Below the pieces are notes generated by a model, which saw only the letters and a list, made by a program, of their open reading frames with translations, was not told the origin of the DNA and ran no database searches. Shown here one piece after another: positions 8,816 through 45,195 of a stretch of DNA of 64,000 bases (the stretch's first letter is position 1; every line of letters starts with the position of its first letter). The stretch comes from an uncultured Gammaproteobacteria bacterium (GTDB lineage: Bacteria; Patescibacteriota; Microgenomatia; Levybacterales; UBA12049), in contig CAYQEJ010000004.1 in NCBI GenBank assembly GCA_964416505.1, forward strand, positions 59,331 to 123,330, read 5' to 3'. The translations under genes and the position numbers were made by a program.

Positions 8816-8847
8816 AGTTATATATCTAGACTAAATAAAATTTAATT

Positions 8848-8861
8848 GCTTGTCAAGGGGG
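8848..8861 (-). promoter_or_regulatory. Promoter-like motif upstream of the major pilin gene. The minus strand reads CCCCCTTGACAAGC, which contains a -35 TTGACA.
   Basis: It shares GCTTGTCAAGrGGG with the hup upstream region and is followed by an AT-rich spacer about 35 nt before the pilA ATG. Confidence 0.35.
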
Positions 8862-8874
8862 TAATTTTTCAGCT

Positions 8875-9714
8875 TTAATTAGCTTCAGAATTATTTTCCC
8901 CAGTTCCACTATTTGATGAAAAATTTGACGAAAAATCTGGAGAAATTGCTGGTGAATTTGATGGCGCTATTACAGAAGGAACAGGAGCCGCTGGGTTATT
9001 AACCGGTAAAGCACTAGTTGGTTTTGGTGCCGAAAAAATATATTTATATAAAACAAATACCAGAATTAAAATAAGAAAAACAAAAACACCTGTTAACATA
9101 TAAAGCCTTTTGTTATCTTTTTTATTTTTCTCATTTGATTGCGCAAGCTGAGCCTGATCCGTGAGTAAGCTATAGGCTCTAAGATCTGGAACCTTATCTA
9201 AGATCAAACCAAGATCAAGATTGTTTTGTAAATTTGGCATAACTTCCATACAAGCTGAAAGAGGAATCACTGAGCTTACAACGAATCCAGAATCGACAAA
9301 CGCATTCCTAACAGCATCACATAGCTCCCTATTCGCAGCGGTAATCTTTGTCTTCTTAGTAAATTTCGATTTCTTGCTCAAGTAATCTTGAAATGGAACC
9401 AATTCTAAAAAATCTTGAACATTTTGATCTATCTGAACAGTACCATCAGTAAAATCTTTATCGAAAGTTACTGTTGTGGAAAGAAGAATTACAATATTCT
9501 CAGGAATTATTTTATAATTTGACACCAATGATTGAATCGCTGTCTCTATCTTTTTTTTGCTTATAACTTCAAGATCGCTAATCATATCCGGAGGAAAATC
9601 CACACCTACCGGAGAAGACAATCCGTGGTCATAAAAAAATCCTCTATTATTTTCTAGATAAAATATTCCTGTGGGTCTTTTTGGTAATTCTTTTTTTAAT
9701 TTATCTCTTTCCAT
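8875..9714 (-). CDS. Bitopic membrane protein within the pilus operon, with a cytoplasmic N-domain, one TM and a Pro/Ser-rich tail. It may play a PilM/PilN-like assembly role.
   Basis: A single TM helix (LYMLTGVFVFLILILVFVLY) follows a roughly 195-aa soluble domain. The C-terminal PxxP/S-rich region follows the TM. The gene sits between the minor and major pilin genes. Confidence 0.25.
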   Translation of the reverse strand: MERDKLKKELPKRPTGIFYLENNRGFFYDHGLSSPVGVDFPPDMISDLEVISKKKIETAIQSLVSNYKIIPENIVILLSTTVTFDKDFTDGTVQIDQNVQDFLELVPFQDYLSKKSKFTKKTKITAANRELCDAVRNAFVDSGFVVSSVIPLSACMEVMPNLQNNLDLGLILDKVPDLRAYSLLTDQAQLAQSNEKNKKDNKRLYMLTGVFVFLILILVFVLYKYIFSAPKPTSALPVNNPAAPVPSVIAPSNSPAISPDFSSNFSSNSGTGENNSEAN

Positions 9715-10064
9715 GAAGTAACAGTTAATTGATTATTTGTATTCGATGTCTGGACTTGGACTTTCCGAATTGTATTCGAAAAAGTAGCTGCACTAGTTAT
9801 CGTACCACTATTTACTACTATTACAACAGATCCACCATCAATACTCATAGTCTCTCCTGTATACGAAGGGTCACGAATCAACCTAAGTAACGCATTTTCA
9901 GCTCCTGTCTCTGCCATATAATATGCGGTAGTCCCCTGATCTACGCTACTAGTTGAGATTGCATTATTTAAAACAACCACCACGACTCCAGTAATTATCG
10001 CTAGGGAAATTGCCATAAAAAAAAGCAAAGTTATCAGCGCATTTCCTTTTTGAGATCTAATCAT
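9696..10064 (-). CDS. Minor pilin-like protein (PilX-like, atypical leader).
   Basis: The N-terminus MIRSQKG|NALITLLFFMAISLAII is a prepilin-like hydrophobic helix but lacks Glu at +5. Confidence 0.5.
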   Translation of the reverse strand: MIRSQKGNALITLLFFMAISLAIITGVVVVVLNNAISTSSVDQGTTAYYMAETGAENALLRLIRDPSYTGETMSIDGGSVVIVVNSGTITSAATFSNTIRKVQVQTSNTNNQLTVTSWKEIN

Positions 10065-10570
10065 CTAAGTCCTCCTGTAGTCTTAAAATTCACGACTTCT
10101 TTTCCTGATCTTCTATTTGCTTCTGAAGTTAAGGTATAAGAAATTTGTAATATATCTTTCCCATTGGAATCGCCCTCTATCCTTAGAAAAGAGAGATTCG
10201 ATACTTTTGTTTCATTGCTATTTAATTGGTCAGATGTGCCAGTAATAGAATTTTCTAGAATTAAATTCCCATCGTCTAATCCGTAAGATATATTCTGACT
10301 ATTAGCTACAATTGTCATAGCAGATCCTGAAGCACCTATTAGAGAAGGAATTGTTATACTTGATGCTCTTGACACATCATACCTAAATCTTTCTGCAATA
10401 TATCTTCCATCTACATTTACAGACGAAGTTGCTTGCGATTCTAATTGTAAATCAAAAACTGATCCATACATCTGAAGAGTTACTGCCAAAAGTATGCTAA
10501 ATATTCCCATATAAATGAGCAACTCTATTAAGGTGAATCCTTTTTTAACTTTAAATATTTTTTTAATCAT
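10061..10570 (-). CDS. Minor type IV pilin.
   Basis: KVKKG|FTLIELLIYMGIFSIL is a canonical prepilin cleavage motif with Glu at +5. Confidence 0.75.
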   Translation of the reverse strand: MIKKIFKVKKGFTLIELLIYMGIFSILLAVTLQMYGSVFDLQLESQATSSVNVDGRYIAERFRYDVSRASSITIPSLIGASGSAMTIVANSQNISYGLDDGNLILENSITGTSDQLNSNETKVSNLSFLRIEGDSNGKDILQISYTLTSEANRRSGKEVVNFKTTGGLR

Positions 10571-13530
10571 TAAGGTGAATAATTAACTCCAAAATCATAA
10601 AGAATTGGCGTCTGCGCTTGATCATTTGAGGACATATATATTTTATATCTCATACACTGTCCTGAATTTTCATAACCAGAGCCATCCGAATTCTTAGGAA
10701 GCTCTCCAGCAGCTGTAAAATAACTGCTTGATGTACCATCAGGCCCAACGTATACATAATTTGCGCCACCACACGATCCACCAACAGGATCTGCGATTGC
10801 CACCTGGTATGTTAATGTTGTTTGAGATGGAACGTTAACTGTAGAAAAAAATCTATTAAACATTGATTCTCCCGTTGCGTTAAAAGGCGCAGATTCAAAA
10901 GTACCAATTGATGAGTAAATCGCATCGTCAGGCCCTCCTTCAATTATTTTTAATTCATTTAGCGTAGTATTTGCCACCATGTAAACAAAATTATCACTAT
11001 CTGCTTCCGTTACTGAAGTTAAATCATTAAATCCTTGATCAAAATTTATTCCTGCACAATAAGTCGGCGAGGCCTCATTGGAACTATTCAAAACCTGGTA
11101 TTCTTCAGCATTATTTGAATTTCCAGTATTTCCATCTTTTCCAACTAAAACCACACGCTCTCCGTTTAGAACGGTTAAGGAACGTCTAGGATAAAGATCT
11201 GCATTAGCACCAGTTCCATAATAAAATCCACTCGTTGGACCATAGCTAGGAGATCCAGATGTGCCAGATAAAAATGCTGGAGCAGTTTTATTCGACGTAT
11301 TAATTACATAGAATTGCTTACTATCGGGCACCCCATTGTTATCCTTGTCGACTCCTCCATTTGATGAAATATAAGCTCTAGTTCCATCTGACTTTGCAAA
11401 TACTGAATTAGCTGCTTCTTCGGTAAACTGCTGAGAATTAAAATCAAGTCCGCTTACAACTTTCCAGCTAGCATCTCCACCTGAAATTGCACCGCAAGTG
11501 TTTTCTGCGCTTCTCGCAGTAGATGGAACAGTTGACACATCAACTATTTCAAATTCTCGGTCAGTTACCCCTCCTACGGCAACGTAAACGTATGTATTCA
11601 CTCCAACTTTAACAGGATATATATCATTTGTGGCATAAAGCTCTATATTTCCACCATCAGAACAGTCAGGGTGAATTGGGGTTGTAGTTGCCCAATTACT
11701 GCCACTTTGGCCTAAGGAATATTTCGCTGCTGAAGAAGTACCCGGATCACACTCATACCCATCCAACTGTATTCTGCAACCTTGCATATCAAGCCCGCTT
11801 GAAGTAGATTTTGTATCAATATTACTTAAATCAAAAATGTATAAAAATCCTCCTGAAGCCACATAACCTTTATTATCATAAACAGCTAATGATGTTGCCC
11901 CATAACCAAAAGGTGATCGGTCATAGGAATCATCATTAAAATAAACCTTAACAGTCGCCCAATCAAGTGAAAAATCACGAGTGGTATCACTCGCTACATC
12001 AATAACTCTAACTCTAAAATTCGAATTTGAAAAATCAGCATCGGCCCATGTTCTTCCCCAGTTATCGGTTGACCCTCCTAAAGAATAGGATACTTCTCCT
12101 GTTGTTAGGTTTGCAGTTGTCTTTGCAGTAGTCCAAGTAGATCCCCCATCCCACGAAAGCTGCACGCAAATCTTCGGGCTCCCCGTAGTAGAATCTGCCT
12201 TTGCATCAAGCCTTACCTCTATACCATTGATCGTGGATCCTGATGGAATATTGACGCCATAATTATAATACCTATGCTTGTCTTTATCTGCGCCCGTACA
12301 ATTCGTCCCAGTACCATTTCCAGAGTTGGTATCTACAGCGAAAGAATTATTATCACTATATGCTCTTGTCGGGTTCGTCGCGTAACCATCTCCATCTCCC
12401 CCAGTATCAGATGCATTTGAGGTTGGATTTAAAAATCCGGTATCTGTAGGAGCGTATGTGGAATAAATTTTTGTGTTAAAAAAAGTCCAGTATTTAAAAA
12501 TTTTATTTATAGGATCTTGATATTCACCAGTATTTGAACTGTTATTCGATGGATCTCCGTCATCCACCAAAACAGCAATTACTTCTTTATTAGGAAGATT
12601 CGTTCCCATAAGAGCATAAGTTTTACCCGCTGAAGATTTATAATACTTAATGTCTGTTGTCTTGAAATTATTATCTAAACCAGTTCCCGTTTGTGGAGAA
12701 TATCCTCCTGAAAACTCAGAAGAATTCATGGTAAATTTACCCGCCAAAACAGCTGAAGGAGTGCTTGTATTTGCCGTCACAGTAACATATGCCATTTTTA
12801 TAGAATTCGAAGTTGTAGGAGACGTAGCAACATAAACATTATTTGGAATACTTACAGAAGAACTAGCAGTAGCAGCAACAGCAACGGGTGGACCATCAGG
12901 AAGATCTATCGTGGTTGCAGAAAATGCCGGAGAACACCACTTAGCTTTGTTATCATTTATCAATTTCAACTCTCCTCCCCCTGTGTTAGTTACTTGAATA
13001 TTACTTGCAGTTCCAGAATTAAACTGAGATGAGGTAGTTTCTGTATATGAGAGATTTTTATATCTAGTAAAGTACGAGGTAGAACTAACATTTGACACAA
13101 GCGGAGTATTCCAGCTAACAGTTGTTACAACTTTTTTTGTTGATGGATCAACTGTTCCTCCAGAATTTACAATACCTCCACTGGAGTTTCTTTGCGCATC
13201 TGAGACATCAACTGAAATTGAAAAACCCTCAACTGCCTGGGCGCCTGATGTAAGCACGTACCTTCCATTGGAAATAACTGCATGGTAACTCCCATTTGCC
13301 GGAATATTACTCCATCCTCTTTCCGCTATGCTTCTTACTGCTTCTTGTGTTTCTTTTAAATAGGTTGTTGCCTGAAGTCTTTGCTCCTGCTGCGCTCTTC
13401 CTCCTCTTCCTGCTGCAAGCCCTGTAAGAAGAGCGGGTAAAATTAAAGTTGCAAGTCCGATAGCAATTAGAAGCTCAACTAACGACTGTCCTTTTTGACT
13501 TCTAAATTTTATCAATTTCCTTAAATTCAT
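10570..13530 (-). CDS. Giant pilin-like protein (986 aa) with a class III signal peptide; a putative modular minor pilin or tip adhesin.
   Basis: The N-terminus MNLRKLIKFRSQKG|QSLVELLIAIGLATLIL has Glu at +5. The remainder is Ser/Thr/Gly/Asn/Tyr-rich and predicted beta-rich. The gene lies between minor pilin genes. Confidence 0.7.
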   Translation of the reverse strand: MNLRKLIKFRSQKGQSLVELLIAIGLATLILPALLTGLAAGRGGRAQQEQRLQATTYLKETQEAVRSIAERGWSNIPANGSYHAVISNGRYVLTSGAQAVEGFSISVDVSDAQRNSSGGIVNSGGTVDPSTKKVVTTVSWNTPLVSNVSSTSYFTRYKNLSYTETTSSQFNSGTASNIQVTNTGGGELKLINDNKAKWCSPAFSATTIDLPDGPPVAVAATASSSVSIPNNVYVATSPTTSNSIKMAYVTVTANTSTPSAVLAGKFTMNSSEFSGGYSPQTGTGLDNNFKTTDIKYYKSSAGKTYALMGTNLPNKEVIAVLVDDGDPSNNSSNTGEYQDPINKIFKYWTFFNTKIYSTYAPTDTGFLNPTSNASDTGGDGDGYATNPTRAYSDNNSFAVDTNSGNGTGTNCTGADKDKHRYYNYGVNIPSGSTINGIEVRLDAKADSTTGSPKICVQLSWDGGSTWTTAKTTANLTTGEVSYSLGGSTDNWGRTWADADFSNSNFRVRVIDVASDTTRDFSLDWATVKVYFNDDSYDRSPFGYGATSLAVYDNKGYVASGGFLYIFDLSNIDTKSTSSGLDMQGCRIQLDGYECDPGTSSAAKYSLGQSGSNWATTTPIHPDCSDGGNIELYATNDIYPVKVGVNTYVYVAVGGVTDREFEIVDVSTVPSTARSAENTCGAISGGDASWKVVSGLDFNSQQFTEEAANSVFAKSDGTRAYISSNGGVDKDNNGVPDSKQFYVINTSNKTAPAFLSGTSGSPSYGPTSGFYYGTGANADLYPRRSLTVLNGERVVLVGKDGNTGNSNNAEEYQVLNSSNEASPTYCAGINFDQGFNDLTSVTEADSDNFVYMVANTTLNELKIIEGGPDDAIYSSIGTFESAPFNATGESMFNRFFSTVNVPSQTTLTYQVAIADPVGGSCGGANYVYVGPDGTSSSYFTAAGELPKNSDGSGYENSGQCMRYKIYMSSNDQAQTPILYDFGVNYSP

Positions 13531-14051
13531 CAGTTTACCCCCGTAATAACACCATACCTATTTATAGTTATAATTATTTCTTTATTAATTGCTATCGATC
13601 TGAGCGTTATAGTATTTGATGATGATGAATAACCTACCATTTCTCCACTTAGGGCTGAGAAAAGAAGAGTATTACTCGGTAATGTAGTACTCTTAATTTC
13701 TAGATCAGAAGGCAAATCTACAGTAAAATTAGTCGAATCTCCGCTGTTGTAGGTTCCACCATGAAACAAAATATATTTATTTGACATAAAATATATTCCG
13801 TAATTATCAGCTGAAGCTCTTCCCTCCGTGTTTCCAGTCATCGCCTTTATTTGCTGAGCTCTAATATCAGAAACAAGCTTATCTGTATTTGAAGTTTCAG
13901 AGGCGGATCCCTGAGCACGCAGTAAATTGAAAGTTATAACTCCAAAAAGGACCATCATAATTGAAGAAGCAAGAAGAATCTCAATAAAACTAAAACCTTT
14001 TTGAGACTTAAATTTCTTTAAATGTATAAATCTTGGCATACTATCTAGCAC
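13530..14051 (-). CDS. Minor type IV pilin (GspH/PilE-like).
   Basis: FKSQKG|FSFIEILLASSIMMVLFGVI is a prepilin motif. Confidence 0.75.
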   Translation of the reverse strand: MLDSMPRFIHLKKFKSQKGFSFIEILLASSIMMVLFGVITFNLLRAQGSASETSNTDKLVSDIRAQQIKAMTGNTEGRASADNYGIYFMSNKYILFHGGTYNSGDSTNFTVDLPSDLEIKSTTLPSNTLLFSALSGEMVGYSSSSNTITLRSIAINKEIIITINRYGVITGVN

Positions 14052-15096
14052 TCACCTGACCAATTAGTCCATATATTGGAGCAATTATTGAAAGCATAAC
14101 TCCACCTACTAAAAGACCTACAACTACAAGCATTACTGGCTCAAGAAGTGTAGTTAAATTTTTCAAACTATTAGTAACTCTATAGTCCTGCTGTTCAGAA
14201 ATATCTTGCATAGATTTATCTAAGGTTCCTGTCTTTTCTCCAGCTTCAACAATTTTTATGATTATTGATGAAAATATTTTCTTCTGGTTTTTGAAACCTT
14301 GCGATAAATTCTTTCCTCCCAAAACCGTATCTTCGGCATATTTTATGGCTGCTTCTATGTCTTTTCTTCTTACAACTTGAATCGATAAATCAAGAGCATT
14401 TGTAATCGTAATTCCTGAAGACAAAAGTAAATACATACTTCTTGAAAATCTTGCCAAGTCGATCTCCTTAACTAAATTAGAAACGACTGGAGCCATATAA
14501 AAGACATTAAGAATTCTTCTTCTCTGAGCCTTGAATAATAAAACTCCAAAAATTAAACTCACCAACATAACTACCAAAAAAGGCACTGTATAATCCAACA
14601 AGAGATTGGAAGCAGATATAAGAATCTTTGTAGGAAGAGGAAGTTTTACATTTAATCTAGAAAATACTGTTGAAATTTTTGGAATTACGACAGTTAAGAT
14701 CAAAAGCAAAACACCGGCAAAAACTGCAAGAATAACAACGGGATAAATCATTGCAGATTTTACCTTATCGTTAAATTCCATATCTTTTTGAATCTGCACT
14801 TTTAAATCTTTAAGAGTTACATCCATTGTTCCTGCTTCTTCTGAAGCACGCAAAACATTAACTGTAACCTTATCGAAAATTTCAGGAAATTTTGCAAAAG
14901 AGGAATATAAATGTTGACCCTGCATAAGATCTTCCCTCATTGTTTCTAAAACTCTTTTGGTATTCCCTTTTGAATCCTCAAGCAAAGAATCTATACTCTC
15001 GAGAATTGGAATTCCAGCAGTAATCATGGTAGATAGATTTCCCAAAAGGGCCAATTTATCACCACCCTTTAATGTAAGCTTTTCATTTGGTGTCAT
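14041..15096 (-). CDS. pilC: Type IV pilus assembly platform protein PilC (GspF family).
   Basis: Two GspF-like repeats contain 3 TM segments. The gene is adjacent to pilB. Confidence 0.8.
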   Translation of the reverse strand: MTPNEKLTLKGGDKLALLGNLSTMITAGIPILESIDSLLEDSKGNTKRVLETMREDLMQGQHLYSSFAKFPEIFDKVTVNVLRASEEAGTMDVTLKDLKVQIQKDMEFNDKVKSAMIYPVVILAVFAGVLLLILTVVIPKISTVFSRLNVKLPLPTKILISASNLLLDYTVPFLVVMLVSLIFGVLLFKAQRRRILNVFYMAPVVSNLVKEIDLARFSRSMYLLLSSGITITNALDLSIQVVRRKDIEAAIKYAEDTVLGGKNLSQGFKNQKKIFSSIIIKIVEAGEKTGTLDKSMQDISEQQDYRVTNSLKNLTTLLEPVMLVVVGLLVGGVMLSIIAPIYGLIGQVSAR

Positions 15097-15097
15097 T

Positions 15098-16780
15098 TTA
15101 TGCTGATTCTACTTTGGTAACTCTAAGAACTTCTTTTATAGTGGTCTTACCTTTTACAACCTTATCTAACCCGTCATCAAGCATAGTAGTCATTCCATCA
15201 GCTATCGCCTGCTTTGCAATTTCATCAGAATCACTTTTTGATGTAATAAGTTCTCTGATTTTTTCTGACATATCAATTACTTCAAAAATTCCAATTCTTC
15301 CACTATAGCCAGTGGCATGACAAACCTTACAACCTTTACCTTCATATACCCTAATCTGATCTCCAGGACCGAAGTATTTTGTAACTGCATCATCAGGAAT
15401 ATCTTTTAAAACTGCTTTTCTACTTATCACTATCTGAGCTTTACAAGAATCACAAATTTTCCTAACAAGTCTTTGAGCAATTATCACGTTCACGGTTGAA
15501 GCAACTAAAAAGGGCTCTATTTTCATATCAATCAAGCGTGGAAGGGTAGTAGCAGCATCATTGGTGTGAATCGTAGATAAAACCAAATGCCCGGTTAAAG
15601 CTGCATTTACGGCAATTCCTGCAGTTTCGCTGTCCCTAATTTCTCCTACAAAAATAACATTTGGATCTTGTCTTAAAATAGAACGAAGTCCGCTTGCGAA
15701 CGTTAAATTTGTTTTAGGATTTACTTGAATTTGATTAACACCTTTTATTCTGTATTCAACAGGCTCTTCAATAGTAGTTATATTTTTCTCTCTAGTATTA
15801 ACAATTTTTAAAATTGCATATACCGATGTTGTCTTACCAGATCCTGTAGGACCTGAGGACAGAATCATTCCGTAAGATTTATTAATTGCATTAGTCACTT
15901 TAGTTAAATCTCTTTCGTTCATACCAAGATCCTGAAGAGTGAATTGTCTAAATTTAGAAGACAAAAGTCTCATAACTATTTTTTCCCCTTCAGTAACTGG
16001 AATTATAGAAACACGAATATCCAGATTCTCCTCGTCTACCACAATTCTCATTTTTCCATCCTGCGCACTCAAATGCTCATCTGTTCTAAGACGAGATAAA
16101 ACCTTAATTCTTGTTACGATTCTGTCGTGAAGTTTTTTATCAACATACAAAACATCATGTAAAATTCCATCAATCCTAAATCTAACAAGTGAATTTTTTT
16201 CCTCTGGCTCTATGTGAACATCTGATGCTTTATCTCGATAAGCATAGGTGATAAGCAAATCTACAATTTTTGCAATCGGTGCCTCATCGAGCGTAGAAGC
16301 CGTCCTTGTTATTTCCGCTTGAAGCATTTGATCAAATGTTTGCTGAAGATCTTTTCTATAGAGCTGAAGCACATTTTCTATATCTTTTTCCGTTGCCATG
16401 TAGACGGTCACTTTTTGACCTGTCTTTTTGCTTATCATCTCAGGAAGTTTTGTATTAACTGGATCTGCAGCTGCAAGCTTTATACCATCTGCATCTTTTG
16501 CAAAAACAATTGCTTTGTGTTTCCTGGCCAATCTCTCCGGAACAATTCTATATACCCCTTCTGAAATCGTAATATTAGACAAAACTACAAAAGGATATTT
16601 AATATGATTCGCTATTAGTTGACCAAGCTTATCATCTGGAATTACATCTTTTTCCATTATTGCTTGCTGGAGAGGAATTCTTCCATTCGCCGCAAATACC
16701 AAAACATCCCTCATGGTCTTAGTGTCAACTAGACCAGACTGAAGAAGCAGTTGTTGTATCTCAATATCGGGCAGAAGCAT
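15098..16780 (-). CDS. pilB: Type IV pilus assembly ATPase PilB (GspE family).
   Basis: Walker A GPTGSGKTT is present, along with GspE Asp/His boxes and a tetra-Cys motif CDSCK...CKVC. The length is 560 aa. Confidence 0.9.
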   Translation of the reverse strand: MLLPDIEIQQLLLQSGLVDTKTMRDVLVFAANGRIPLQQAIMEKDVIPDDKLGQLIANHIKYPFVVLSNITISEGVYRIVPERLARKHKAIVFAKDADGIKLAAADPVNTKLPEMISKKTGQKVTVYMATEKDIENVLQLYRKDLQQTFDQMLQAEITRTASTLDEAPIAKIVDLLITYAYRDKASDVHIEPEEKNSLVRFRIDGILHDVLYVDKKLHDRIVTRIKVLSRLRTDEHLSAQDGKMRIVVDEENLDIRVSIIPVTEGEKIVMRLLSSKFRQFTLQDLGMNERDLTKVTNAINKSYGMILSSGPTGSGKTTSVYAILKIVNTREKNITTIEEPVEYRIKGVNQIQVNPKTNLTFASGLRSILRQDPNVIFVGEIRDSETAGIAVNAALTGHLVLSTIHTNDAATTLPRLIDMKIEPFLVASTVNVIIAQRLVRKICDSCKAQIVISRKAVLKDIPDDAVTKYFGPGDQIRVYEGKGCKVCHATGYSGRIGIFEVIDMSEKIRELITSKSDSDEIAKQAIADGMTTMLDDGLDKVVKGKTTIKEVLRVTKVESA

Positions 16781-24466: not shown

Positions 24467-25033
24467 TTATACTACTTTAGCCTCATTTAGGAAATCACTT
24501 AACTTTTTAAGCGCAATTTTACGATGAGAAATTTTATCTTTTTCTGAAGGAGTCATTTCGGCAAAAGTTTTTCTTTCTCCGTCTGGCACAAAAACCGGAT
24601 CCCAACCAAAACCATTTTCCCCTCTTATTTCTTTGGAAATCTCTCCATCAATTTCCCCAATAAATAAATAAGGATTTTTTCCATCATGATAACCAATCGC
24701 AAGCTTTGCTATAGCTTTTCTATTTTCTTCATTTTTTAATAATCTTAAAAGAAGATTTGCGGTATCATTTTCGGACTTTAACATCCATTTAATCAAAGGC
24801 CCAGGAAATCCATTCCATGCGCTAATTTCTAAAGAAATGTCATCGATAATCACAGGGCCTTTTACTATACCGAAAGCCTGATTCAACTTATTCAGTGCAA
24901 CTTTTTCTAAATTAATTTCTTGAATTTCTTCAATTTCGGTTTCTAATATTTCTAAAGGGATATTTAGAATTCTCGAAACTTCTTTAGCTTTTGCCTTATT
25001 TCCTGTGACAAAAGTTATCTTGGAAGTTTTCAT
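24467..25033 (-). CDS. rdgB: Non-canonical purine NTP pyrophosphatase (Ham1/RdgB).
   Basis: ITFVTGNKAKAKE, ...FGWDPVF... and the Ham1 length fit. Confidence 0.85.
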   Translation of the reverse strand: MKTSKITFVTGNKAKAKEVSRILNIPLEILETEIEEIQEINLEKVALNKLNQAFGIVKGPVIIDDISLEISAWNGFPGPLIKWMLKSENDTANLLLRLLKNEENRKAIAKLAIGYHDGKNPYLFIGEIDGEISKEIRGENGFGWDPVFVPDGERKTFAEMTPSEKDKISHRKIALKKLSDFLNEAKVV

Positions 25034-26544
25034 TTTGAGGCCTCTTCTAGTCTTTCTTTCACAAATGATTTATCCAGAGAAAGCAAAAACCAAGCTAGCC
25101 TTGGACCATGATCTTTTCCAATCAATGCTTTATAAAATGCCGAAAATGTATCCCCAGATGCTAATTCAAGACTTTTTCCTAAATCATAAATTTTAGTTTG
25201 GAGCTCCGAAGGATCTTTTACTTCAGAAATAAATTCTGCAGTTTTTCTTAAAAGCTCTTTTTGTTCTTCTGATAGGTCAATATTTTTTGGCAACTCTTTC
25301 TGAACCGTAAATTTTTGATCATCTGGAGCAAACCGTTCCACCCATACCCTGGCATATTTCGCCCATTCCTCCAATCCTCCTTCTTTAATCTTTCCATCCA
25401 TGTTTGGCATTTGCACCCAAGAAGTTAAAATCGAAAATCTAATCATTGGTGGTTTTTTTATTTCTTCTATTTGAGAAATTTCAAATGCTCTGCCTAAATC
25501 TTCATCACTTTTACTGAAATATGCTTCTGCTGCTTTTTGATAATCATCAAAAAGAGAGGGGATAGCATTCTTATCTTCGGGATCAAAATTTGTTTGAGAT
25601 TTAATTCCATTTCTTGCAAACAAAAACCTGGCTACATTTGGAGGAAGTATTTCTATTAAGTCGTGTGCTTTAAGACCCAAACCTTTCGAGGAAGACATTT
25701 TCTTGCCACCGATTAGAATAAATTCATATGGGAGCCTAAACGGAGGAGCGAAATCGAATACCTCTTTGCATATTTCCATTGCAATATCATATGAACCACC
25801 CTTTGAAGCATGATCTTTTCCAGCCCCCTCAATTGTTACCCCAATCACTTTCCAATGAGCTGGCCAATCAACTTTCCACGGAAGCTTCCCAGTTCCACCA
25901 AAGGGAGTAATTTTCCCTTCATATCCACAACCGACAGCCCATTTAACCAAATTGGGTTCACATTTGTATGAAACTTTTTCAGAATCCCATGCGAAAACTT
26001 TGGTGGTTCCCAATTTCCCGCATTGCTCGCAGATAACCTGGAAAGGAAGCCAGCCGGATTGTTTCTTCTGACTTCCAGAAATTCTTTGATAGATATCCTG
26101 AATTTTTTCTGCATTATCTAGTGCCTTTTTTATGACCTCATCAAACTTTCCTTGATGATAAAGTTCCCATGAGGATAATACTTTAACATTAACTCCCAGA
26201 TTTTTTATTGCATTTAGAAAATCCGTAGAAAACAAATCTGCCATTGACTCAAATTTTGGATCAGGTGATTTTGCTAATTTTAAAGGCTTCCCAAGTTCCG
26301 ATTCATGAGTACCTTTTATTTCTGGGAGAAGATCATCTGCGGGATCGAAATCATTTATCACAAATGTATAATCTACCTCTTTCCCAAGATCTTTTAAGCT
26401 TTGAAAAATCATACTATGAATCACAGGCCCCATAAGCGAGCCCACATGTGCATAGCCAGAAGGAGTCTTCATATCATCTACCCAATAGGGGACGTATTTT
26501 CCAGAATCAATAATATCTTTTGCAATTTTATCAGCCCAAAACAT
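25030..26544 (-). CDS. lysK: Class I (archaeal-type) lysyl-tRNA synthetase.
   Basis: The N-terminus MFWADKIAKDII...PSGYAHVG matches class I LysRS. A KMSSSKG (KMSKS-like) motif is present. Confidence 0.7.
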   Translation of the reverse strand: MFWADKIAKDIIDSGKYVPYWVDDMKTPSGYAHVGSLMGPVIHSMIFQSLKDLGKEVDYTFVINDFDPADDLLPEIKGTHESELGKPLKLAKSPDPKFESMADLFSTDFLNAIKNLGVNVKVLSSWELYHQGKFDEVIKKALDNAEKIQDIYQRISGSQKKQSGWLPFQVICEQCGKLGTTKVFAWDSEKVSYKCEPNLVKWAVGCGYEGKITPFGGTGKLPWKVDWPAHWKVIGVTIEGAGKDHASKGGSYDIAMEICKEVFDFAPPFRLPYEFILIGGKKMSSSKGLGLKAHDLIEILPPNVARFLFARNGIKSQTNFDPEDKNAIPSLFDDYQKAAEAYFSKSDEDLGRAFEISQIEEIKKPPMIRFSILTSWVQMPNMDGKIKEGGLEEWAKYARVWVERFAPDDQKFTVQKELPKNIDLSEEQKELLRKTAEFISEVKDPSELQTKIYDLGKSLELASGDTFSAFYKALIGKDHGPRLAWFLLSLDKSFVKERLEEASK

Positions 26545-26598: not shown

Positions 26599-27606
26599 TT
26601 AAAAAGTAAATTTACTGATAATTTCAAATATTTTCTCTTTGTTCTCTTCCGTTACTTTTATTTCCACCATTCCTTCATTAGGTTTACCCTTGGAAGCTTT
26701 AGCGAAAGAGGGCTGACCATAATAAATAGAAAACCCAAGTGGAGCTACGAGAACAGCTGGCAAAACCGTTAAATCTTCTTCTCCATCAATTAAGATCACA
26801 TATTTCTTGTTTGACTCTATACATTTTTTTACTTCTTCAAAAATACTCCCTGAAATTTCACCCGCTGAGTTTTTTATTTTAATTGTTTTAATTTCCTTTT
26901 CGAAATTTAAGTCTTCCATTTTTTCAAACTTTTTCTTTCTCTGAACTTGAAAATCCACAATTGAAAGAATCTGATTAATTTTATTTAGGTTAAATTCTTT
27001 AGTTGTTATGTCACCAATAGTAATTATCTTTTGCCCATCTAGATTTCTTGATATTTTTTTAAGCACATCTCCCATTGGTTTTTGCAATAAAGGTCGCATC
27101 TCTTGCGGTAATTTTAAACTTTTATTTATCCACTCATCTTTAACATATAGTCTTCCATCTCTATTTATTTCTCCGTTTCTGATTCTCGTACTTGATATTA
27201 AACCATTATCTTCTGCTCGATCCATTTCGATAACTTCAACTGCAATTTCCGGAATACCAATAGCTTTCCTTTCTTCATTAATTCCAATTACAGTTCTATT
27301 TGTTTGTGGCGTCACAGCTACAGCCGAAACTTTAAAATTTTTATCTAAGAGAGGACCATAGATATCATCTATTTCAATAATTTCAAGCTTATTTGAGGCC
27401 TTAAGGGTTTTTAAAAAATTAAAAACATTTCGTTCTCGAGTTCTATAATCTTCAAAATTATTATTCTTGAATCTTGATACATATGAATCGCTTGTCACTC
27501 CAATTATAACTTTATCTCCTAATTGGGCTACTTTTTCTAAAAAGCTTTTGTGTCCTTTATGAAGAAGATCAAATGTTCCACCGCTTACTATGACATCATA
27601 TTTCAT
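26599..27606 (-). CDS. Fusion protein: an N-terminal archaeal-type phosphopantetheine adenylyltransferase (cytidylyltransferase fold) and a C-terminal DUF359-like domain (archaeal GTP-dependent dephospho-CoA kinase-like).
   Basis: The N-terminus has GGTFDLLHKGHKSFL...GVTSD. The C-terminal half has GDITT...ILIDGEEDL..LPAVLVAPLGFSIYYGQP. The DUF359 assignment is from memory of the family and needs checking. Confidence 0.45.
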   Translation of the reverse strand: MKYDVIVSGGTFDLLHKGHKSFLEKVAQLGDKVIIGVTSDSYVSRFKNNNFEDYRTRERNVFNFLKTLKASNKLEIIEIDDIYGPLLDKNFKVSAVAVTPQTNRTVIGINEERKAIGIPEIAVEVIEMDRAEDNGLISSTRIRNGEINRDGRLYVKDEWINKSLKLPQEMRPLLQKPMGDVLKKISRNLDGQKIITIGDITTKEFNLNKINQILSIVDFQVQRKKKFEKMEDLNFEKEIKTIKIKNSAGEISGSIFEEVKKCIESNKKYVILIDGEEDLTVLPAVLVAPLGFSIYYGQPSFAKASKGKPNEGMVEIKVTEENKEKIFEIISKFTF

Positions 27607-27610: not shown

Positions 27611-28798
27611 CTAAATTCCTAATTCTTCTTTTACGCTTTTAAATGCTGCTATACCTTTATCTAAATCCTCTCTTGAATGTGCTGCGGAAGGAATAACTCT
27701 AATTCGAGCTGTGCCTTTTGGTACCATAGGAAAAACAATCGGAGTTGCGAATACATCCATCTCGTATAGTTTTTTAGAGAATTCCTTTGCTTTTTCTTCA
27801 TCTCCAATCAAAACTGGAGTAATGGGGCTTACGCTTTTCCCGGTATTGAATCCTAATTTCTTAAATTCTTCTTTTATATATTTTACATTCTCCCATAACT
27901 TATCAACGGTTTCAGTCGATTCTGAAAGAATATTTATTGCTTCAAGAGCTGCTGCGGTATCGGGAATTGAGAGCGCAATTGAAAAAAGTCTCTGACGCGC
28001 TTTCAGCTTATAATAGCCTATTAATGTTTTATTTCCTGCAATAAATCCGCCCAAAGAAGAAAATGCTTTGGATAAGCTGCCTACTTCAATATCAATTTTT
28101 CCTACTAAGCCAAAATGATCGACAACACCACGTCCACCTTTCCCCATCACTCCTTCACCATGAGCGTCATCAACCATCGTCAATGCATTATATTTTTCTG
28201 CTAGTTCAACAATCTCAGGAAGAGGAGCTAGATCTCCATCCATAGAGAAAACTCCATCGGTAACTATAAGAACTAATGGTAAATTTCCATCAGACTTAAC
28301 ATTCTTTCGAATCTCATCTATTTCTTGAAGTTTTTTTTCTAGATCAGCGGAATCTCCATGCTTGTAAATAAATTTATTTTTTACACCTGATAATCTCACT
28401 GCATCAATTATTGATGCATGGTTTAACTCATCAGAAATTACTATATCTTCTTTACCTATAATCGTTTGAATTGCTGCAGCATTTGCCAAATAAGCACTTG
28501 AAAAAGTTAACGCAGCCTCCGTACCTTTAAATTTAGCAATCGCTTCCTCGAGCTCTAAATGAAGAACGTGTGTTCCGGCCAAAGTTCTATATCCTGTCCC
28601 AATTCCATATTTCTCAACAGCTGCAATCACTGCATCTTTTACTTTTTGATTTTCTGCTAATCCTAAATAATGACTTGAACAAAAATTGAGTTTTCTTACA
28701 CCATCAATAGTAAGATATGCTCCTTGACCTGATTGAATAACCCTAGGAGTAACACCAGCTTTTACAACTTCTTCAAGTTCTTTATAAAAATCATCCAT
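27611..28798 (-). CDS. kbl: 2-amino-3-ketobutyrate CoA ligase (glycine C-acetyltransferase), a PLP-dependent enzyme.
   Basis: Class II aminotransferase fold with an SLSKAF lysine motif. It is adjacent to tdh. Confidence 0.8.
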   Translation of the reverse strand: MDDFYKELEEVVKAGVTPRVIQSGQGAYLTIDGVRKLNFCSSHYLGLAENQKVKDAVIAAVEKYGIGTGYRTLAGTHVLHLELEEAIAKFKGTEAALTFSSAYLANAAAIQTIIGKEDIVISDELNHASIIDAVRLSGVKNKFIYKHGDSADLEKKLQEIDEIRKNVKSDGNLPLVLIVTDGVFSMDGDLAPLPEIVELAEKYNALTMVDDAHGEGVMGKGGRGVVDHFGLVGKIDIEVGSLSKAFSSLGGFIAGNKTLIGYYKLKARQRLFSIALSIPDTAAALEAINILSESTETVDKLWENVKYIKEEFKKLGFNTGKSVSPITPVLIGDEEKAKEFSKKLYEMDVFATPIVFPMVPKGTARIRVIPSAAHSREDLDKGIAAFKSVKEELGI

Positions 28799-28800: not shown

Positions 28801-29820
28801 TTAAGGGGTAAGAACTATTTTTCCGCTTTCTCCAGATTTCATTACCTTCATAGCCTCCTCAAAATCTTTAAGAGCAAATCTATGTGTAATGATTTTAGAT
28901 AAATCTACTTTTCCCGAAGTTAATAATTCCGAAGTCTGTTCCCATGTTTCCCAAATTCTTCTACCGAAAACGCTTTTTAAATTTAATTCTTTATTTATAA
29001 AATACTTACCAAAATCAACTGCAACAGGTGCTTTAGGAATTCCAAAAATTATTATTACTCCAGCTATTCTTACTGCATCAAGAGCTGTTTGAATAGCGTC
29101 TGGATTTCCCGACATTTCTAAAACAGCATCTATCTTATTTAAATATTTTTCAGGAAGCTTGTCATAAATCTCATCTGCACCCATTTTTTCCGCAAGCTTT
29201 CTTCTATATTCTCCACGGTTGAGAGCGATTACTTTCTTCGCACCAAAGGCCTTAGCAGCTGCCACTGCACATAATCCGGTAGGACCAAGTCCCGTTACCA
29301 AAACCGTTTTCCCCTCAACTTCTGCTTTTTTTGCTACATGAACGGCATTTCCAAGAGGCTCTTGAGAACTCATTGCCTCCAAAGGAACTCTAGGATCATT
29401 TTTCCATGATGTTCTAATTGGAATTGTCGCATACTCTGCAAATCCACCATTTCTTCCAATTCCAAAAAGCTCCATATTTTCACAAATATGCTTATTGCCA
29501 ATTTCACATTGATAACATTTTCCACAATAAATATGAGTTTCAGATGAAACTAAGTCTCCAATTTTTAAACCTTTTGGATTATCTCCGTTGATTTCAAGAA
29601 TTTCTCCTACTACCTCATGACCTATCACGATTGGTGGAGCGATATGCCCTTCTGCCCAGGGAGTCCAATCATAAATCGAGATATCTGTACCACAAATTGA
29701 GGCTGCTTTTACTTTTACTAAGAGTTCTCCATCTAGAGGCTTGGGGATGGGGATTTTTTTAATAGAAACGCCTGGTGCTTTGTTTTCCTTAAGAACTGCG
29801 AGCATCAGATCATTAGCCAT
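28801..29820 (-). CDS. tdh: L-threonine 3-dehydrogenase (zinc-dependent alcohol dehydrogenase (ADH) family).
   Basis: ICGTDISIYDW...GHEVVGE and the NAD-binding glycine motif GLGPTG are present. Confidence 0.8.
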   Translation of the reverse strand: MANDLMLAVLKENKAPGVSIKKIPIPKPLDGELLVKVKAASICGTDISIYDWTPWAEGHIAPPIVIGHEVVGEILEINGDNPKGLKIGDLVSSETHIYCGKCYQCEIGNKHICENMELFGIGRNGGFAEYATIPIRTSWKNDPRVPLEAMSSQEPLGNAVHVAKKAEVEGKTVLVTGLGPTGLCAVAAAKAFGAKKVIALNRGEYRRKLAEKMGADEIYDKLPEKYLNKIDAVLEMSGNPDAIQTALDAVRIAGVIIIFGIPKAPVAVDFGKYFINKELNLKSVFGRRIWETWEQTSELLTSGKVDLSKIITHRFALKDFEEAMKVMKSGESGKIVLTP

Positions 29821-31893: not shown

Positions 31894-33295
31894 AAAAAAA
31901 GCTCACTTAAAATCAGCAAGCAAAACTGTCTTTTGGTTCTCGATGGGAGCCGTAATGGCTCTATTTTTAATTTCTAGTTTTTCCTACATAGGATTTCAAA
32001 AATACTATAAAAATAAAATTTATCCAGGAATAACAATCGATAATGTTAATTTTGGTAGCAAATCAAAAGAACAAGTTGTAAAGCACATTCAAGAAAAAAA
32101 TGATAAAGCCTCAAATGGTGTTTTTGTTTTTAAATTTGATGACGAAATCGCAACAGTTTCTGCAAAAGAAATTGATTTTGGATACGATGAAAACCTACTA
32201 GCTGAACAGGCTATCAGCATTGGCCGCTCAAAAGACCCAATTACAAATTTAAGTTTAATTTTTCAGGCATATACAATTGGGATAAATCTTTCCCCTGCAT
32301 ACAGATATTCAAGTGAAAAACTAGATAAAAAGCTTGAACCACTTATTGAAAACATAAATACAAAACCAGTCGAGGCGGTATTTACATTTGAAAATGGGAG
32401 AGTAACAGAATTTAAAGCTTCATCCGATGGCCGAGAAGTAAATAAAGAAGAATTGAATAATAAACTACTTTCGCAAGCTAAAGCAGTCTTAGGAAATTCT
32501 CTTCAAAAAGTGGTGATTATCCAAATTCCAATAAAAATTTTAAAACCAAATCTCACGACAGACAAAGTAAATCAGATGGGAATAAGAGAACTTATCGGAA
32601 CAGGTACATCTTTATATCAACACTCAATTGACAGTAGAATTTATAATGTTGCACTTGCTGCGTCTAGAGTAAATGGAGTGCTTGTCGCCCCAGGTGAAAT
32701 ATTTTCTTTTGCAAAAGCTGTAGGAGATGTCTCTTCGCTTACAGGATACAAACAAGCATATGTTATATCCGGGGGAAAAACGGTTTTAGGAGACGGGGGA
32801 GGAGTTTGTCAGGTATCAACTACACTTTTTAGAGCTGCTCTAAATGCAGGTCTTCCCATAGTCGAGAGACATCCACATGCATACAGAGTTGGTTACTATG
32901 AACAGGATTCTCCACCAGGAATTGATGCAACAGTTTATGTACCAAGCGTTGATTTTAAATTCAAAAATGACACTGGTCATCATATACTAATCCAAACAAT
33001 AGTTGATCCCGTAGAACTTAGGTTAACTTTTATGTTTTATGGAACTAGTGATGGAAGAATTTCTGAAGTATCTAGTCCAGTAATAACCAATCAGGTTCCT
33101 GCTCCTGAAGCAAAATATGAAGATGATCCTTCTTTACCCAAGGGTCAAATAAAACAAGTGGATTTTGCTGCTCCCGGCGCGAAGTCAACTTTTTCCAGAA
33201 TCGTAAAAAGAGATGGAAAAATTATCTCCGAAGATACATTTGTTTCAAACTATAGACCATGGCAGGCAGTATTCTTAAGAGGCACAAAAGAATAG
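31847..33295 (+). CDS. VanW-like protein with an N-terminal TM.
   Basis: GGGVCQVSTTLFRAALNAGLPIVER resembles the VanW core. A TM anchor is present. Confidence 0.55.
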   Translation: MILATMKSSIKKINSIKKAHLKSASKTVFWFSMGAVMALFLISSFSYIGFQKYYKNKIYPGITIDNVNFGSKSKEQVVKHIQEKNDKASNGVFVFKFDDEIATVSAKEIDFGYDENLLAEQAISIGRSKDPITNLSLIFQAYTIGINLSPAYRYSSEKLDKKLEPLIENINTKPVEAVFTFENGRVTEFKASSDGREVNKEELNNKLLSQAKAVLGNSLQKVVIIQIPIKILKPNLTTDKVNQMGIRELIGTGTSLYQHSIDSRIYNVALAASRVNGVLVAPGEIFSFAKAVGDVSSLTGYKQAYVISGGKTVLGDGGGVCQVSTTLFRAALNAGLPIVERHPHAYRVGYYEQDSPPGIDATVYVPSVDFKFKNDTGHHILIQTIVDPVELRLTFMFYGTSDGRISEVSSPVITNQVPAPEAKYEDDPSLPKGQIKQVDFAAPGAKSTFSRIVKRDGKIISEDTFVSNYRPWQAVFLRGTKE

Positions 33296-33771
33296 TGGGA
33301 AAAATTCTAGAAACTGAAAATATTTCTTCTGAAATAAGTATACTTAAAAAACAAAATAAAAAAATTGTTTTAGTAGGAGGCTGTTTTGACATTCTTCATC
33401 TTGGACATTTACTTTTTCTTGAGGCAGCAAAAAAAGAAGGAAACATACTCATAGTTCTTCTTGAAAGCGATGAAAATATTAAAAAACGAAAAGGAAATAA
33501 TAGACCAATAAATAATGCGCACAGCAGGCAAATAATAGTTAGTTCTATAAAGAGCGTTGATTACGTTATTCCCTTAAAAGGCGTGACATCAGATTTAGAA
33601 TATGATAGACTAATGTCTCAAATTAAGCCTGACGTTGTTGCAATAACAGAAGGAGATTCGCAAACCGAAAAAAGAAAAATTCAATGCGAAGAAACTGGAA
33701 CAAAACTAAAAACTGTAATTAAATTGATTGATAATAATTCAACTACTGCTCTTATCAATAAAATAAAATAA
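33259..33771 (+). CDS. Cytidylyltransferase-family nucleotidyltransferase (RfaE domain II / RibL / TagD-like).
   Basis: GGCFDILHLGHLLFLEAAKKEG...KG.NRP (HxGH plus the downstream KG/RP motif). Confidence 0.65.
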   Translation: MAGSILKRHKRIVGKILETENISSEISILKKQNKKIVLVGGCFDILHLGHLLFLEAAKKEGNILIVLLESDENIKKRKGNNRPINNAHSRQIIVSSIKSVDYVIPLKGVTSDLEYDRLMSQIKPDVVAITEGDSQTEKRKIQCEETGTKLKTVIKLIDNNSTTALINKIK

Positions 33772-43909: not shown

Positions 43910-44656
43910 ATGAATGATCTTTCTGAAAAAAGAAAAGAAGCTATAAAAAAATATCCCAAACTAGGAGAAGTGTCCGATGAAAATTTTCCTAAACATATTT
44001 TTATAATTCCTGATGGAAACAGAAGGTATGCTTCGAAAAACAATAAACCTGCATTTTGGGGACATGAAAAAGGATTTAAAGTAGCAATTAATTTACTTAG
44101 ATTTTTCAGACCATTTCCGATAAAAACAGTGACACTTTGGGGTTTTTCTTCTGACAATTGGAAAAGAGACACTGGGGAAATTAAGAATCTCATGCGAATC
44201 TTCGGATTCATAATAGACAACTACTTAGATGAAATTAAGGAGTACAACTCCAGATTTGTTCATCTCGGGAGACGCGATAGATTACCAAAAAATCTGCTTA
44301 ATAAGATAGAAAAGGCTGAGAGAGAAACTAAGAATAATACTGGTCAGATTGTCTGTCTGGCGCTGGACTTCGGCGGAGAAGACTCTAACGTAAGAAGCGC
44401 TTTAAAAGCCAGGCAAACAAACTTTGAAATAAATGAAGAAACGATTTGGAAATTAAGAGACACTGAAGGCTTAATAAGATCAGCAGATTTAATCTTTAGA
44501 ACCAGCGAAAAAAGAACATCTGATGTGGGTTTTCTGAACGGAAAACACTCTGTATTGTTTTTTGCAGAAGATAAATTATTCCCTGAAGTAACTGAAGATG
44601 ACCTAGCAGATGCAATTTATTATTATTCACAAACAAAAAGAAACGAAGGAAAATGA
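43910..44656 (+). CDS. uppS: Undecaprenyl (isoprenyl) diphosphate synthase.
   Basis: IPDGNRRYA is a cis-prenyltransferase signature. A second conserved region ...FRTS... is present. Confidence 0.85.
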   Translation: MNDLSEKRKEAIKKYPKLGEVSDENFPKHIFIIPDGNRRYASKNNKPAFWGHEKGFKVAINLLRFFRPFPIKTVTLWGFSSDNWKRDTGEIKNLMRIFGFIIDNYLDEIKEYNSRFVHLGRRDRLPKNLLNKIEKAERETKNNTGQIVCLALDFGGEDSNVRSALKARQTNFEINEETIWKLRDTEGLIRSADLIFRTSEKRTSDVGFLNGKHSVLFFAEDKLFPEVTEDDLADAIYYYSQTKRNEGK

Positions 44657-45195
44657 TGCTTAATTATTACAAACAAAAGCAACTTATTGCTAAAGTTGAC
44701 GAGAAAGGAAATATATTAGGAGAGATTGAAAAATGGGAAGCACATAAAAATGGAATTCTTCATAAAGCTATAACAGTAACAATTTTTTTTAATAATAAAC
44801 TCATAATCCAACATAGGCGACATCCAGCTTTTGACAAAACTTACGACGTAACCTCATCTTCACACCAGCTATTTATAAAAGGAAAGCTCCAAACTAGTAA
44901 AGATACAGCAAGAGATTGTTTAAAAAGAGAATGGAATCTTAACGAAGATCAATATTCTAATTTAAAAAATCTTGGATCAATATACTATAAAGCAAAGGAT
45001 CCCAATAGCGAATTTACAGAACATGAGATTTGTGACGTTTTAACAGTGGAAGTAAATAGTAAACCTGAACCAAACTTAGATTTTTCCTATGACGCTCTCT
45101 TGGTAAGTCTCGAAGAATTAAAAAATAAAGATTCGAGGATTTTTAAAAACCTTGCACCGTGGGTAAAGGTAATGATAGAAGAAGGAAAAATTTAA
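44653..45195 (+). CDS. Nudix-fold protein resembling type 1 isopentenyl-diphosphate isomerase. The catalytic Cys is not evident.
   Basis: EKWEAHKNGILHKAITVTIFFNNKLIIQHRRHPAFDKTYDVTSSSH parallels IDI-1 ...AH..G.LHRAFS..LFN...LLLQRR....W.NTCCSHP. It overlaps uppS by 4 nt. Confidence 0.4.
   Translation: MMLNYYKQKQLIAKVDEKGNILGEIEKWEAHKNGILHKAITVTIFFNNKLIIQHRRHPAFDKTYDVTSSSHQLFIKGKLQTSKDTARDCLKREWNLNEDQYSNLKNLGSIYYKAKDPNSEFTEHEICDVLTVEVNSKPEPNLDFSYDALLVSLEELKNKDSRIFKNLAPWVKVMIEEGKI

Follow-up and report, generated by a model that had tools for sequence, protein, structure and literature searches.

A PPAT-DUF359 fusion predicted to carry out the last two steps of coenzyme A synthesis in Levybacteria-like bacteria of the candidate phyla radiation

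The fusion of a phosphopantetheine adenylyltransferase (PPAT) to a protein of the arCOG04076 family in group II/III euryarchaeota (AIF21550.1) led Makarova, Koonin, Atomi and colleagues to TK1697 as a dephospho-coenzyme A (CoA) kinase (DPCK; PMC6650551), and this protein of Thermococcus kodakarensis was shown to be a GTP-dependent DPCK (Shimosaka et al. 2019, PMC6650551). The family, which corresponds to DUF359, was described as archaeal, and iterative PSI-BLAST retrieved arCOG04076 members only (PMC6650551). According to the literature, DUF359 was the last uncharacterised gene of a 218-gene pan-archaeal core, and its Pfam family, PF04019, serves as one of the universal archaeal markers by which genome quality is assessed. 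The PPAT-DUF359 architecture and its functional meaning are already established; its bacterial side looks undescribed. A limited search found no literature linking DUF359, archaeal DPCK or PPAT to the candidate phyla radiation (CPR) or Patescibacteria, although such a link may be published elsewhere. Here we analyse a stretch of 64,000 nt, referred to in full as the window (positions 59,331 to 123,330 of contig CAYQEJ010000004.1, assembly GCA_964416505.1), from a bacterium titled 'uncultured Gammaproteobacteria' and placed by GTDB in the Levybacterales of the Patescibacteriota. One of its genes very probably encodes a bifunctional PPAT/DPCK, or 'CoA synthase', made of two archaeal-type modules and resident in a Levybacteria-like member of the CPR. 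The gene and its parts are as follows.

26599-27606, minus strand: complete open reading frame of the PPAT-DPCK fusion (335 aa plus TAA)
27142-27606, minus strand: archaeal/eukaryotic-type PPAT domain, aa 1-155 (NF001985, 3DO8 and motifs)
27118-27141, minus strand: junction between the domains, aa 156-163, KDEWINKS (alignments; the structural model is confident across the junction)
26602-27117, minus strand: C-terminal DUF359/arCOG04076 domain, putatively of the GTP-dependent DPCK type, aa 164-335 (PF04019, NF041125 and 8JVC)

A single open reading frame (ORF) of 335 codons, followed by a TAA stop, spans the gene. Its ATG start codon (27604-27606) is preceded by a Shine-Dalgarno-like AGGA about 10 nt 5' of the ATG, and the protein N-terminus, MKYDVIVSGGTFD, aligned residue for residue with homologues. 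A preliminary description, made from the sequence alone, had placed a feature at 26599-27606 without stating its strand; these positions match the one 335-aa ORF exactly, and the four motifs quoted there were all found in it: GGTFDLLHKGH (aa 9-19; nt 27550-27582), GDITT (aa 198-202), DGEEDL (aa 274-279) and YGQP (aa 296-299). The existence of at least 300 homologues, together with matches to both domains far beyond chance, confirmed the gene to be real. A plus-strand ORF at 27008-27361 (117 aa) was regarded as spurious, being antisense to the conserved fusion gene.

The archaeal-type PPAT model of NCBIfam, NF001985, matched aa 4-155 of the protein (profile positions 5-154 of 157; E 2.7e-40), its score of 138 bits exceeding the curated cutoff of 104. 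In searches of the sequences of the Protein Data Bank (PDB), the PPAT of Archaeoglobus fulgidus (3DO8) was found over aa 7-152 at E 2.5e-19. The E values of 3GLV, of glycerol-3-phosphate cytidylyltransferases and of nicotinamide mononucleotide adenylyltransferase (NMNAT) were 3.5e-6 to 0.26, those of 3GLV, glycerol-3-phosphate cytidylyltransferases and similar entries being 1e-3 to 1e-6; in all, glycerol-3-phosphate and choline-phosphate cytidylyltransferases, NMNAT and bacterial CoaD trailed 3DO8 by 10 to 18 orders of magnitude. No rival cytidylyltransferase model of NCBIfam scored above 56 bits, and no specific enzyme model above 40, all of them remaining far under their cutoffs; the bacterial CoaD model TIGR01510 matched weakly (17 bits vs a cutoff of 103). 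The Thermococcales PPAT equivalog model, NF041124, gave a significant match of 62 bits, far below its lineage-specific cutoff of 290. The PPAT motifs were intact, both in the GGTFDxxHxGH segment (G10-T11-F12-D13 and H16-K-G18-H19) and in ISSTRIR (I137-S-S-T-R-I-R143, aa 137-143). An alignment showed residues T11, H16, G18, H19, S138, T140, R141 and R143 to be invariant in 24 CPR homologues. These comparisons support the grouping of the N-terminal domain with archaeal PPAT rather than with RibL-like or other cytidylyltransferases.

The C-terminal half matched DUF359 (PF04019) at aa 201-333, along nearly the whole profile (positions 1-125 of 126; E 8e-28), and its 97 bits exceeded the gathering score of 25. 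The GTP-dependent DPCK of T. kodakarensis (PDB 8JVC) was found by sequence at E 1.2e-15 over aa 167-331, with 26-28% identity. The Thermococcales DPCK equivalog model NF041125 matched at E 5e-21 with 74.9 bits and did not reach its cutoff of 300; this model is lineage-specific, so that the shortfall rules out a close orthologue of the Thermococcales enzyme but leaves membership of the family untouched. No match to the P-loop CoaE domain (PF01121/TIGR00152) was detected in the fusion protein at E values up to 1. A HMMER alignment to 8JVC equated D199, D218 and D278 with D48, D67 and D125 of TK1697. When a ΔTK1697 strain was complemented with mutant genes, D48A and D67A grew dramatically slower than the wild type, and D125A showed a reduced growth rate, yet grew better than D48A and D67A (PMC6650551). 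The positions of these codons, and of a lineage-variable segment of the domain, are given below.

27010-27012, minus strand: codon of Asp199, equivalent to catalytic Asp48 of TK1697, GD motif (8JVC alignment; mutagenesis in PMC6650551)
26953-26955, minus strand: codon of Asp218, equivalent to catalytic Asp67 of TK1697 (8JVC alignment; mutagenesis in PMC6650551)
26773-26775, minus strand: codon of Asp278, equivalent to Asp125 of TK1697, GEEDL motif (8JVC alignment; mutagenesis in PMC6650551)
26680-26709, minus strand: lineage-variable insert after YGQP, aa 300-309, SFAKASKGKP (alignments; model confidence below 50)

The three aspartates and Y296 of the YGQ motif were invariant in a set of 58 sequences, fused and stand-alone (33 CPR fusions, seven fusions of Marine Group II (MGII) archaea and 18 stand-alone archaeal DPCKs), as were the GEEDL and YGQ motifs across the CPR and archaeal proteins of this set. 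Neither the T. kodakarensis DPCK nor most homologues have the insert following YGQP, for which disorder is predicted. Only some family members had an insert at this place; it measured 10-20 aa, and its core was frequently A-[KE]-A-S.

The homology to PPAT stops near aa 152-155, and as early as aa 164-179 the segment LKLPQEMRPLLQKPMG could be aligned with the N-terminus of DPCKs that stand alone in archaea, P0260 among them; hardly any sequence separates the two domains. An AlphaFold2 model of the fusion, built on 24 homologues, had a mean predicted local distance difference test (pLDDT) value of 87.7 and a predicted template-modelling (TM) score of 0.83, with only aa 300-309 below a pLDDT of 50. 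When this model was compared with the PDB using Foldseek, 8JVC and 8JVG came first (E 3e-13 to 2e-12; target TM 0.77-0.81), followed by 3DO8 (TM 0.78-0.80). The reading of the two halves in the preliminary description, as an archaeal type of PPAT followed by DUF359, was thus borne out. The Pfam search suggested there found both families, PF01467 (cytidylyltransferase-like) at aa 9-144 (E 7e-16; 59 bits vs 21) and PF04019. A grouping of the N-terminal domain with RibL/FMN adenylyltransferase had been envisaged as a possible outcome, as had a C-terminal half resembling neither DUF359 nor any kinase; instead, the PPAT 3DO8 was far ahead of other cytidylyltransferases, and the C-terminal half was matched by PF04019, NF041125 and 8JVC and resembled the T. 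kodakarensis DPCK both in sequence and in predicted fold.

The substrate of one domain or of both might nevertheless have changed (to FMN, NMN or a sugar phosphate, for example, in the first; to a different nucleotide-like molecule in DUF359), in which case the protein would be no CoA synthase. The PF01467 superfamily is broad, with a second, RfaE-domain-II-like member in the window (33259-33771), the equivalog-level models were not reached, and DUF359 has been characterised in a single organism. We consider such a drift quite improbable, however, given that the family-level PPAT model was passed and the other cytidylyltransferase models were not, that the three DPCK aspartates, GEEDL and YGQ are invariant across CPR and archaeal proteins, and that the fusion of the same two consecutive steps recurs in MGII archaea. 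Indeed, the presence of PPAT and DUF359, two consecutive steps of one pathway, in the same protein is strong functional evidence. As a CoA synthase, the fusion would convert 4'-phosphopantetheine to CoA through both of its activities. The N-terminal nucleotidyltransferase domain would form dephospho-CoA from 4'-phosphopantetheine and ATP, and the DUF359 domain, whose fold is Rossmann-derived, related to thiamine pyrophosphokinase and devoid of a P-loop, would phosphorylate the 3'-OH of dephospho-CoA to give CoA. By analogy with TK1697 of T. kodakarensis, the DUF359 domain probably uses GTP.

Among described proteins, the fusions of MGII/III archaea (e.g. AIF21550.1) are like the window protein in domain order (PPAT-DUF359), length (about 335 aa) and aspartate triad, but are only 28-30% identical to it, and the host of the window protein is a bacterium of the CPR. 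In tblastn comparisons, the MGII loci L038-L043 and L048 were colinear with the fusion over aa 9-335, both domain hidden Markov models matching the same ORF. TK1697 (PDB 8JVC/8JVF/8JVG) is a stand-alone protein of 19.7 kDa with a homologous DPCK domain; its three aspartates, GEEDL and YGQP are kept in the window protein, which differs in being joined to PPAT and in carrying the disordered 10-aa insert after YGQP. PPATs of the archaeal/eukaryotic type (COG1019; Pyrococcus abyssi PAB0944, T. kodakarensis TK2128 and A. fulgidus 3DO8) share with the window PPAT the T/HxGH and ISxTxxR motifs and the same fold, whereas the window PPAT is fused to the next enzyme of the pathway, and this in a bacterium. 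Eukaryotic COASY also combines PPAT and DPCK in one polypeptide, has a PPAT of the archaeal/eukaryotic type and couples the last two steps, but its DPCK is an ATP-using P-loop kinase (CoaE family, PF01121), whereas the kinase of the window has the unrelated DUF359 fold. Bacterial CoaD and CoaE catalyse the same two reactions from separate genes; CoaD is a distant superfamily relative of the N-terminal domain and CoaE is not homologous to DUF359. The preliminary description had regarded a single polypeptide for the last two steps as notable. The fusion itself is real, but that word was too strong for an arrangement already known in COASY and in uncultured archaea (PMC6650551).

The fusion gene lies in a dense, co-directional array ordered greA, tdh, kbl, fusion, lysK, ham1, serS and secA, in which successive genes are separated by 1, 2, 4 and 54 nt, overlap by 4 nt (lysK-ham1), and are then separated by 7 and 33 nt; the kbl stop codon is thus 4 nt upstream of the fusion ATG. 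Its nearest neighbours are the following.

28801-29820, minus strand: zinc-dependent alcohol dehydrogenase (Zn-ADH)-type L-threonine 3-dehydrogenase (tdh), 2 nt upstream of kbl (TIGR00692, 371 bits)
27611-28798, minus strand: kbl-like glycine C-acetyltransferase (2-amino-3-ketobutyrate CoA ligase; Kbl/BioF family; TIGR01825, 487 bits, and NF005394, 434 bits, both just under the cutoffs)
25030-26544, minus strand: class I (archaeal-type) lysyl-tRNA synthetase (lysK), directly downstream of the fusion (TIGR00467 lysS_arch, 346 bits vs a cutoff of 147.55)

No terminator-like site was found between kbl, the fusion and lysK. The best promoter-like site was located just upstream of greA, although promoter-like sites were no commoner here than in shuffled sequence. 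With the class I lysyl-tRNA synthetase, two archaeal-type genes stand next to each other here. Given that DUF359 serves as a universal archaeal marker, and that the PSI-BLAST searches of 2019 retrieved archaeal members only, the gene might be taken for contamination from an archaeon, for a fragment binned wrongly or for the product of a very recent horizontal transfer. It is embedded, however, with spacers of 1-54 nt, among bacterial genes such as those for GreA, SecA and seryl-tRNA synthetase; other bacterial neighbours in the window include Ham1 NTPase, a VanW-like protein, TsaD, RecA/RecX, RNase Y and UppS, and the window also holds a long ribosomal-protein/SecY/Adk/Map/RpoA operon. The GC content at the fusion locus (0.34-0.36) equals that of the rest of the window. 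Further, the gene order of this locus was found again in four independent assemblies of near-identical sequence and in over 20 genomes of Levybacteria, where the array greA-tdh-kbl-fusion-lysK persisted until fusion identity had dropped to about 43%. Contamination or recent transfer, which we regard as barely conceivable, was rejected, being effectively refuted by composition, bacterial neighbours and conserved synteny. The fusion is a stable, vertically inherited housekeeping gene of the Levybacteria-like host, and is conserved as a resident of Levybacteria and of related Microgenomates.

Tdh and Kbl together convert threonine and free CoA into glycine and acetyl-CoA, Kbl being the enzyme that consumes CoA. 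The CoA made by the fusion would feed this adjacent route, and the proximity of the fusion to a CoA consumer is a suggestive functional clue only. The Zn-ADH-type tdh was absent from loci L005-L009, L012, L014, L018 and L025. In L009, a threonine dehydrogenase of the short-chain dehydrogenase/reductase (SDR) type was found between kbl and the fusion (5036-5980, plus strand; E 1e-120 to PDB 5Z75 and 8e-101 to 2YY7). An interval of about 1 kb between kbl and the fusion was also present in L005-L008, L012, L014, L018 and L025, its content having been read in L009 only. With the SDR-type enzyme in place of the Zn-ADH-type tdh, one dehydrogenase has been exchanged for a non-orthologous one, while Tdh, Kbl and the fusion have remained neighbours.

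From 5.8 billion proteins searched, at least 300 emerged as homologues of the fusion; the best 120 of them were listed. All but one of these 120 were 323-363 aa long and contained both Pfam domains; the exception, P0097, had 290 aa and came from a contig of 1.2 kb. The homologues with names belonged to Candidatus Levybacteria/Levyibacteriota and 'Patescibacteria group', and were labelled only 'pantetheine-phosphate adenylyltransferase' or 'cytidyltransferase-like protein'. When the C-terminal domain was used by itself in an exhaustive HMMER search, 1814 clusters (50% identity) were obtained at E values up to 1e-3. Almost all of the nearest 150 had 320-340 aa and matches starting near residue 160, indicating that they are fusions, and the shorter DUF359 entries inspected were mostly fragments that still carried ISSTRIR. 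Among the species representatives of GTDB, the full-length fusion was found in Levyibacteriota, Curtissbacteria and candidate division CPR3 and, with 28-30% identity, in MGII archaea (Poseidoniales, Thalassarchaeaceae). Many archaea, as well as some Nealsonbacteria and Parcubacteria, had archaeal-type PPAT as a stand-alone gene; within about 6 kb of such genes, the Nealsonbacteria, Parcubacteria and archaeal loci showed no DUF359 gene.

Many of the GTDB representative metagenome-assembled genomes (MAGs) bearing the fusion were titled 'uncultured Gammaproteobacteria' or 'uncultured Pseudomonadales' (L005-L007, L009, L010, L012-L014, L017, L019, L024, L026, L027, L030-L032, L036 and L037). About a dozen of them (e.g. 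L005-L007, L009, L010, L012, L014 and L019) showed the Levybacteria gene order and GreA, SecA and Kbl proteins 60-95% identical, so that their titles look wrong; L030-L032, L036 and L037 had no detectable synteny with the window. A MAG titled Desulfobacteria contained a stand-alone archaeal-type PPAT (L069, 6001-6456) that grouped weakly with the stand-alone PPATs of Nealsonbacteria and Parcubacteria; it could reflect mis-binning or another inter-domain transfer. At the distant CPR locus L031, a NUDIX hydrolase gene (6905-7441, plus strand) overlaps the 3' end of the fusion and might encode a CoA or dephospho-CoA pyrophosphatase. In L035, from CPR3, a GNAT acetyltransferase gene (3791-4510, plus strand) lies two genes upstream of the fusion.

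The relationship between the CPR and MGII fusions was explored in neighbour-joining trees (Kimura distances, 200 bootstraps) of the PPAT domain (80 sequences, 157 columns) and of the DPCK domain (58 sequences, 168 columns). In the PPAT tree, the MGII fusions formed a clade in all 200 replicates and the CPR fusions a single clade with weak support (18/200). The CPR and MGII fusions grouped together in none of the 200 replicates, and neither did the stand-alone PPATs of the CPR join the CPR fusions (0/200). The DPCK tree placed the MGII fusions with the T. kodakarensis DPCK in 128 replicates of 200, a clade of CPR and MGII fusions being recovered in three. The deep nodes were poorly supported and the method is crude; the trees give no support for a single fusion event and are compatible with independent fusions, so that the fusion may have arisen twice.

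The origin of the 4'-phosphopantetheine that the fusion would use was considered next to the gene content of the window. Among the window ORFs scanned (64 kb), none corresponded to CoaBC, pantothenate or pantoate kinase, CoaX, bacterial CoaD or a bona fide CoaE. Neither CoaBC, pantothenate kinase (PanK) nor CoaX was found by Pfam among the 10 immediate neighbours of the fusion in four distant CPR loci (L029, L031, L032 and L035), and no motif of CoaBC or CoaE was picked up by regular expressions in the six-frame translation, which is weak evidence. Two candidates were discarded. The cytidylyltransferase-family gene at 33259-33771 (plus strand) was rejected as a second PPAT; it is RfaE-domain-II-like, heptose-1-phosphate adenylyltransferase (RfaE domain II) being the closest match with 109-111 bits, below the cutoffs. 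Many Levybacteria loci keep this gene at a distance of about 6 kb from the fusion. The P-loop kinase gene at 50750-51310 (minus strand), which is UPF0200/AdkA-like and scored 22.6 bits with the CoaE model TIGR00152 (cutoff 65.55), was not treated as a CoA enzyme. Archaeal homologues of bacterial DPCK showed no DPCK activity in T. kodakarensis (PMC6650551).

The 4'-phosphopantetheine would then be salvaged from the host or the environment, not made de novo. An enzyme for the last two steps is what such salvage would need, and its presence does not contradict the idea of the preliminary description that CPR bacteria salvage CoA intermediates. The same bifunctional enzyme might instead end a full de novo pathway, the genes for CoaBC and for a kinase of pantothenate or pantoate lying in another part of the genome, of which only 64 kb were examined; some CPR lineages keep partial cofactor pathways. 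We find this doubtful in view of the absence of CoaBC, PanK and CoaX from the window ORFs scanned and from the neighbourhoods of the four distant loci. Saccharibacteria, another CPR lineage, have also been reported to lack the CoA and pantothenate modules (PMC11659515), and the reduced genomes of Mycoplasma often retain only the late steps of CoA synthesis (PMC8721197); these two reports make salvage of 4'-phosphopantetheine the more likely reading.

Taken as a whole, and as a tentative possibility, a large CPR clade (Levybacteria, Curtissbacteria and CPR3) might complete CoA with a fusion that is independent of those of MGII and COASY, is the sole CoA enzyme retained, acts on salvaged 4'-phosphopantetheine and has been missed by standard annotation and by module-based reconstructions; DUF359 would then cease to be specific to archaea, as an enzyme and as a marker. 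Several points weigh against the main reading given further above, that of a CoA synthase which uses salvaged 4'-phosphopantetheine and feeds Tdh and Kbl. The bacterial members are known from sequence and predicted structure alone, and the low scores with the Thermococcales equivalog models of DPCK and PPAT, expected for a distant lineage, point to orthology at the level of the family only. The nucleotide specificity of the DPCK domain is not readable from sequence, its putative preference for GTP being drawn by analogy. The idea of salvage would follow from absence within a 64-kb window, which is one part of the genome. Loci L026 and L028 have the order greA-fusion-lysK without tdh or kbl, so that the link to tdh and kbl may be mere dense packing, and distant CPR fusions adjoin unrelated housekeeping genes (those for cysteinyl-tRNA synthetase, the CCA-adding enzyme, TruB, NUDIX, DsbB and GNAT proteins).

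Since only the PPAT half is named in database records, metabolic reconstructions of the CPR will probably count the DPCK step as absent, which would exaggerate the apparent CoA auxotrophy of these bacteria. The systematic presence of PF04019 in a bacterial clade is a caveat for its use as a universal archaeal marker, and the fusion qualifies the 'archaea-only' status of DUF359. If the fusion is the sole CoA gene, it would define an import need of these putative symbionts, namely 4'-phosphopantetheine, and would offer a bacterial example of a DPCK without a P-loop for the study of nucleotide specificity and substrate channelling. The current understanding is not overturned; the fusion is a bacterial branch of a known archaeal architecture.

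Other features of the window were recorded. Three tandem P-loop nucleotide-kinase genes (50205-51852, minus strand) lie between secY and map.

51307-51852, minus strand: adk (P-loop kinase trio)
50750-51310, minus strand: UPF0200/AdkA-like archaeal-type kinase (PDB 3LW7/3H0K, E about 1e-12)
50205-50753, minus strand: second adk-like gene (P-loop kinase trio)

A stretch of low GC content (0.26-0.28) at 2001-8000 contains genes for a glycosyltransferase and an NAD-dependent epimerase, together with a PMT_2-like gene. A type IV pilus-like cluster at 8354-16780 includes two pilin-like genes with N-terminal methylation motifs, T2SS-F and a T2SS-E ATPase, as well as an ORF of 986 aa that matched no family. 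Finally, a NUDIX-family gene at 44653-45195 (plus strand) adjoins that for undecaprenyl-diphosphate synthase, and showed a sub-threshold match to type 1 isopentenyl diphosphate (IPP) isomerase (TIGR02150, 52 bits vs 106).

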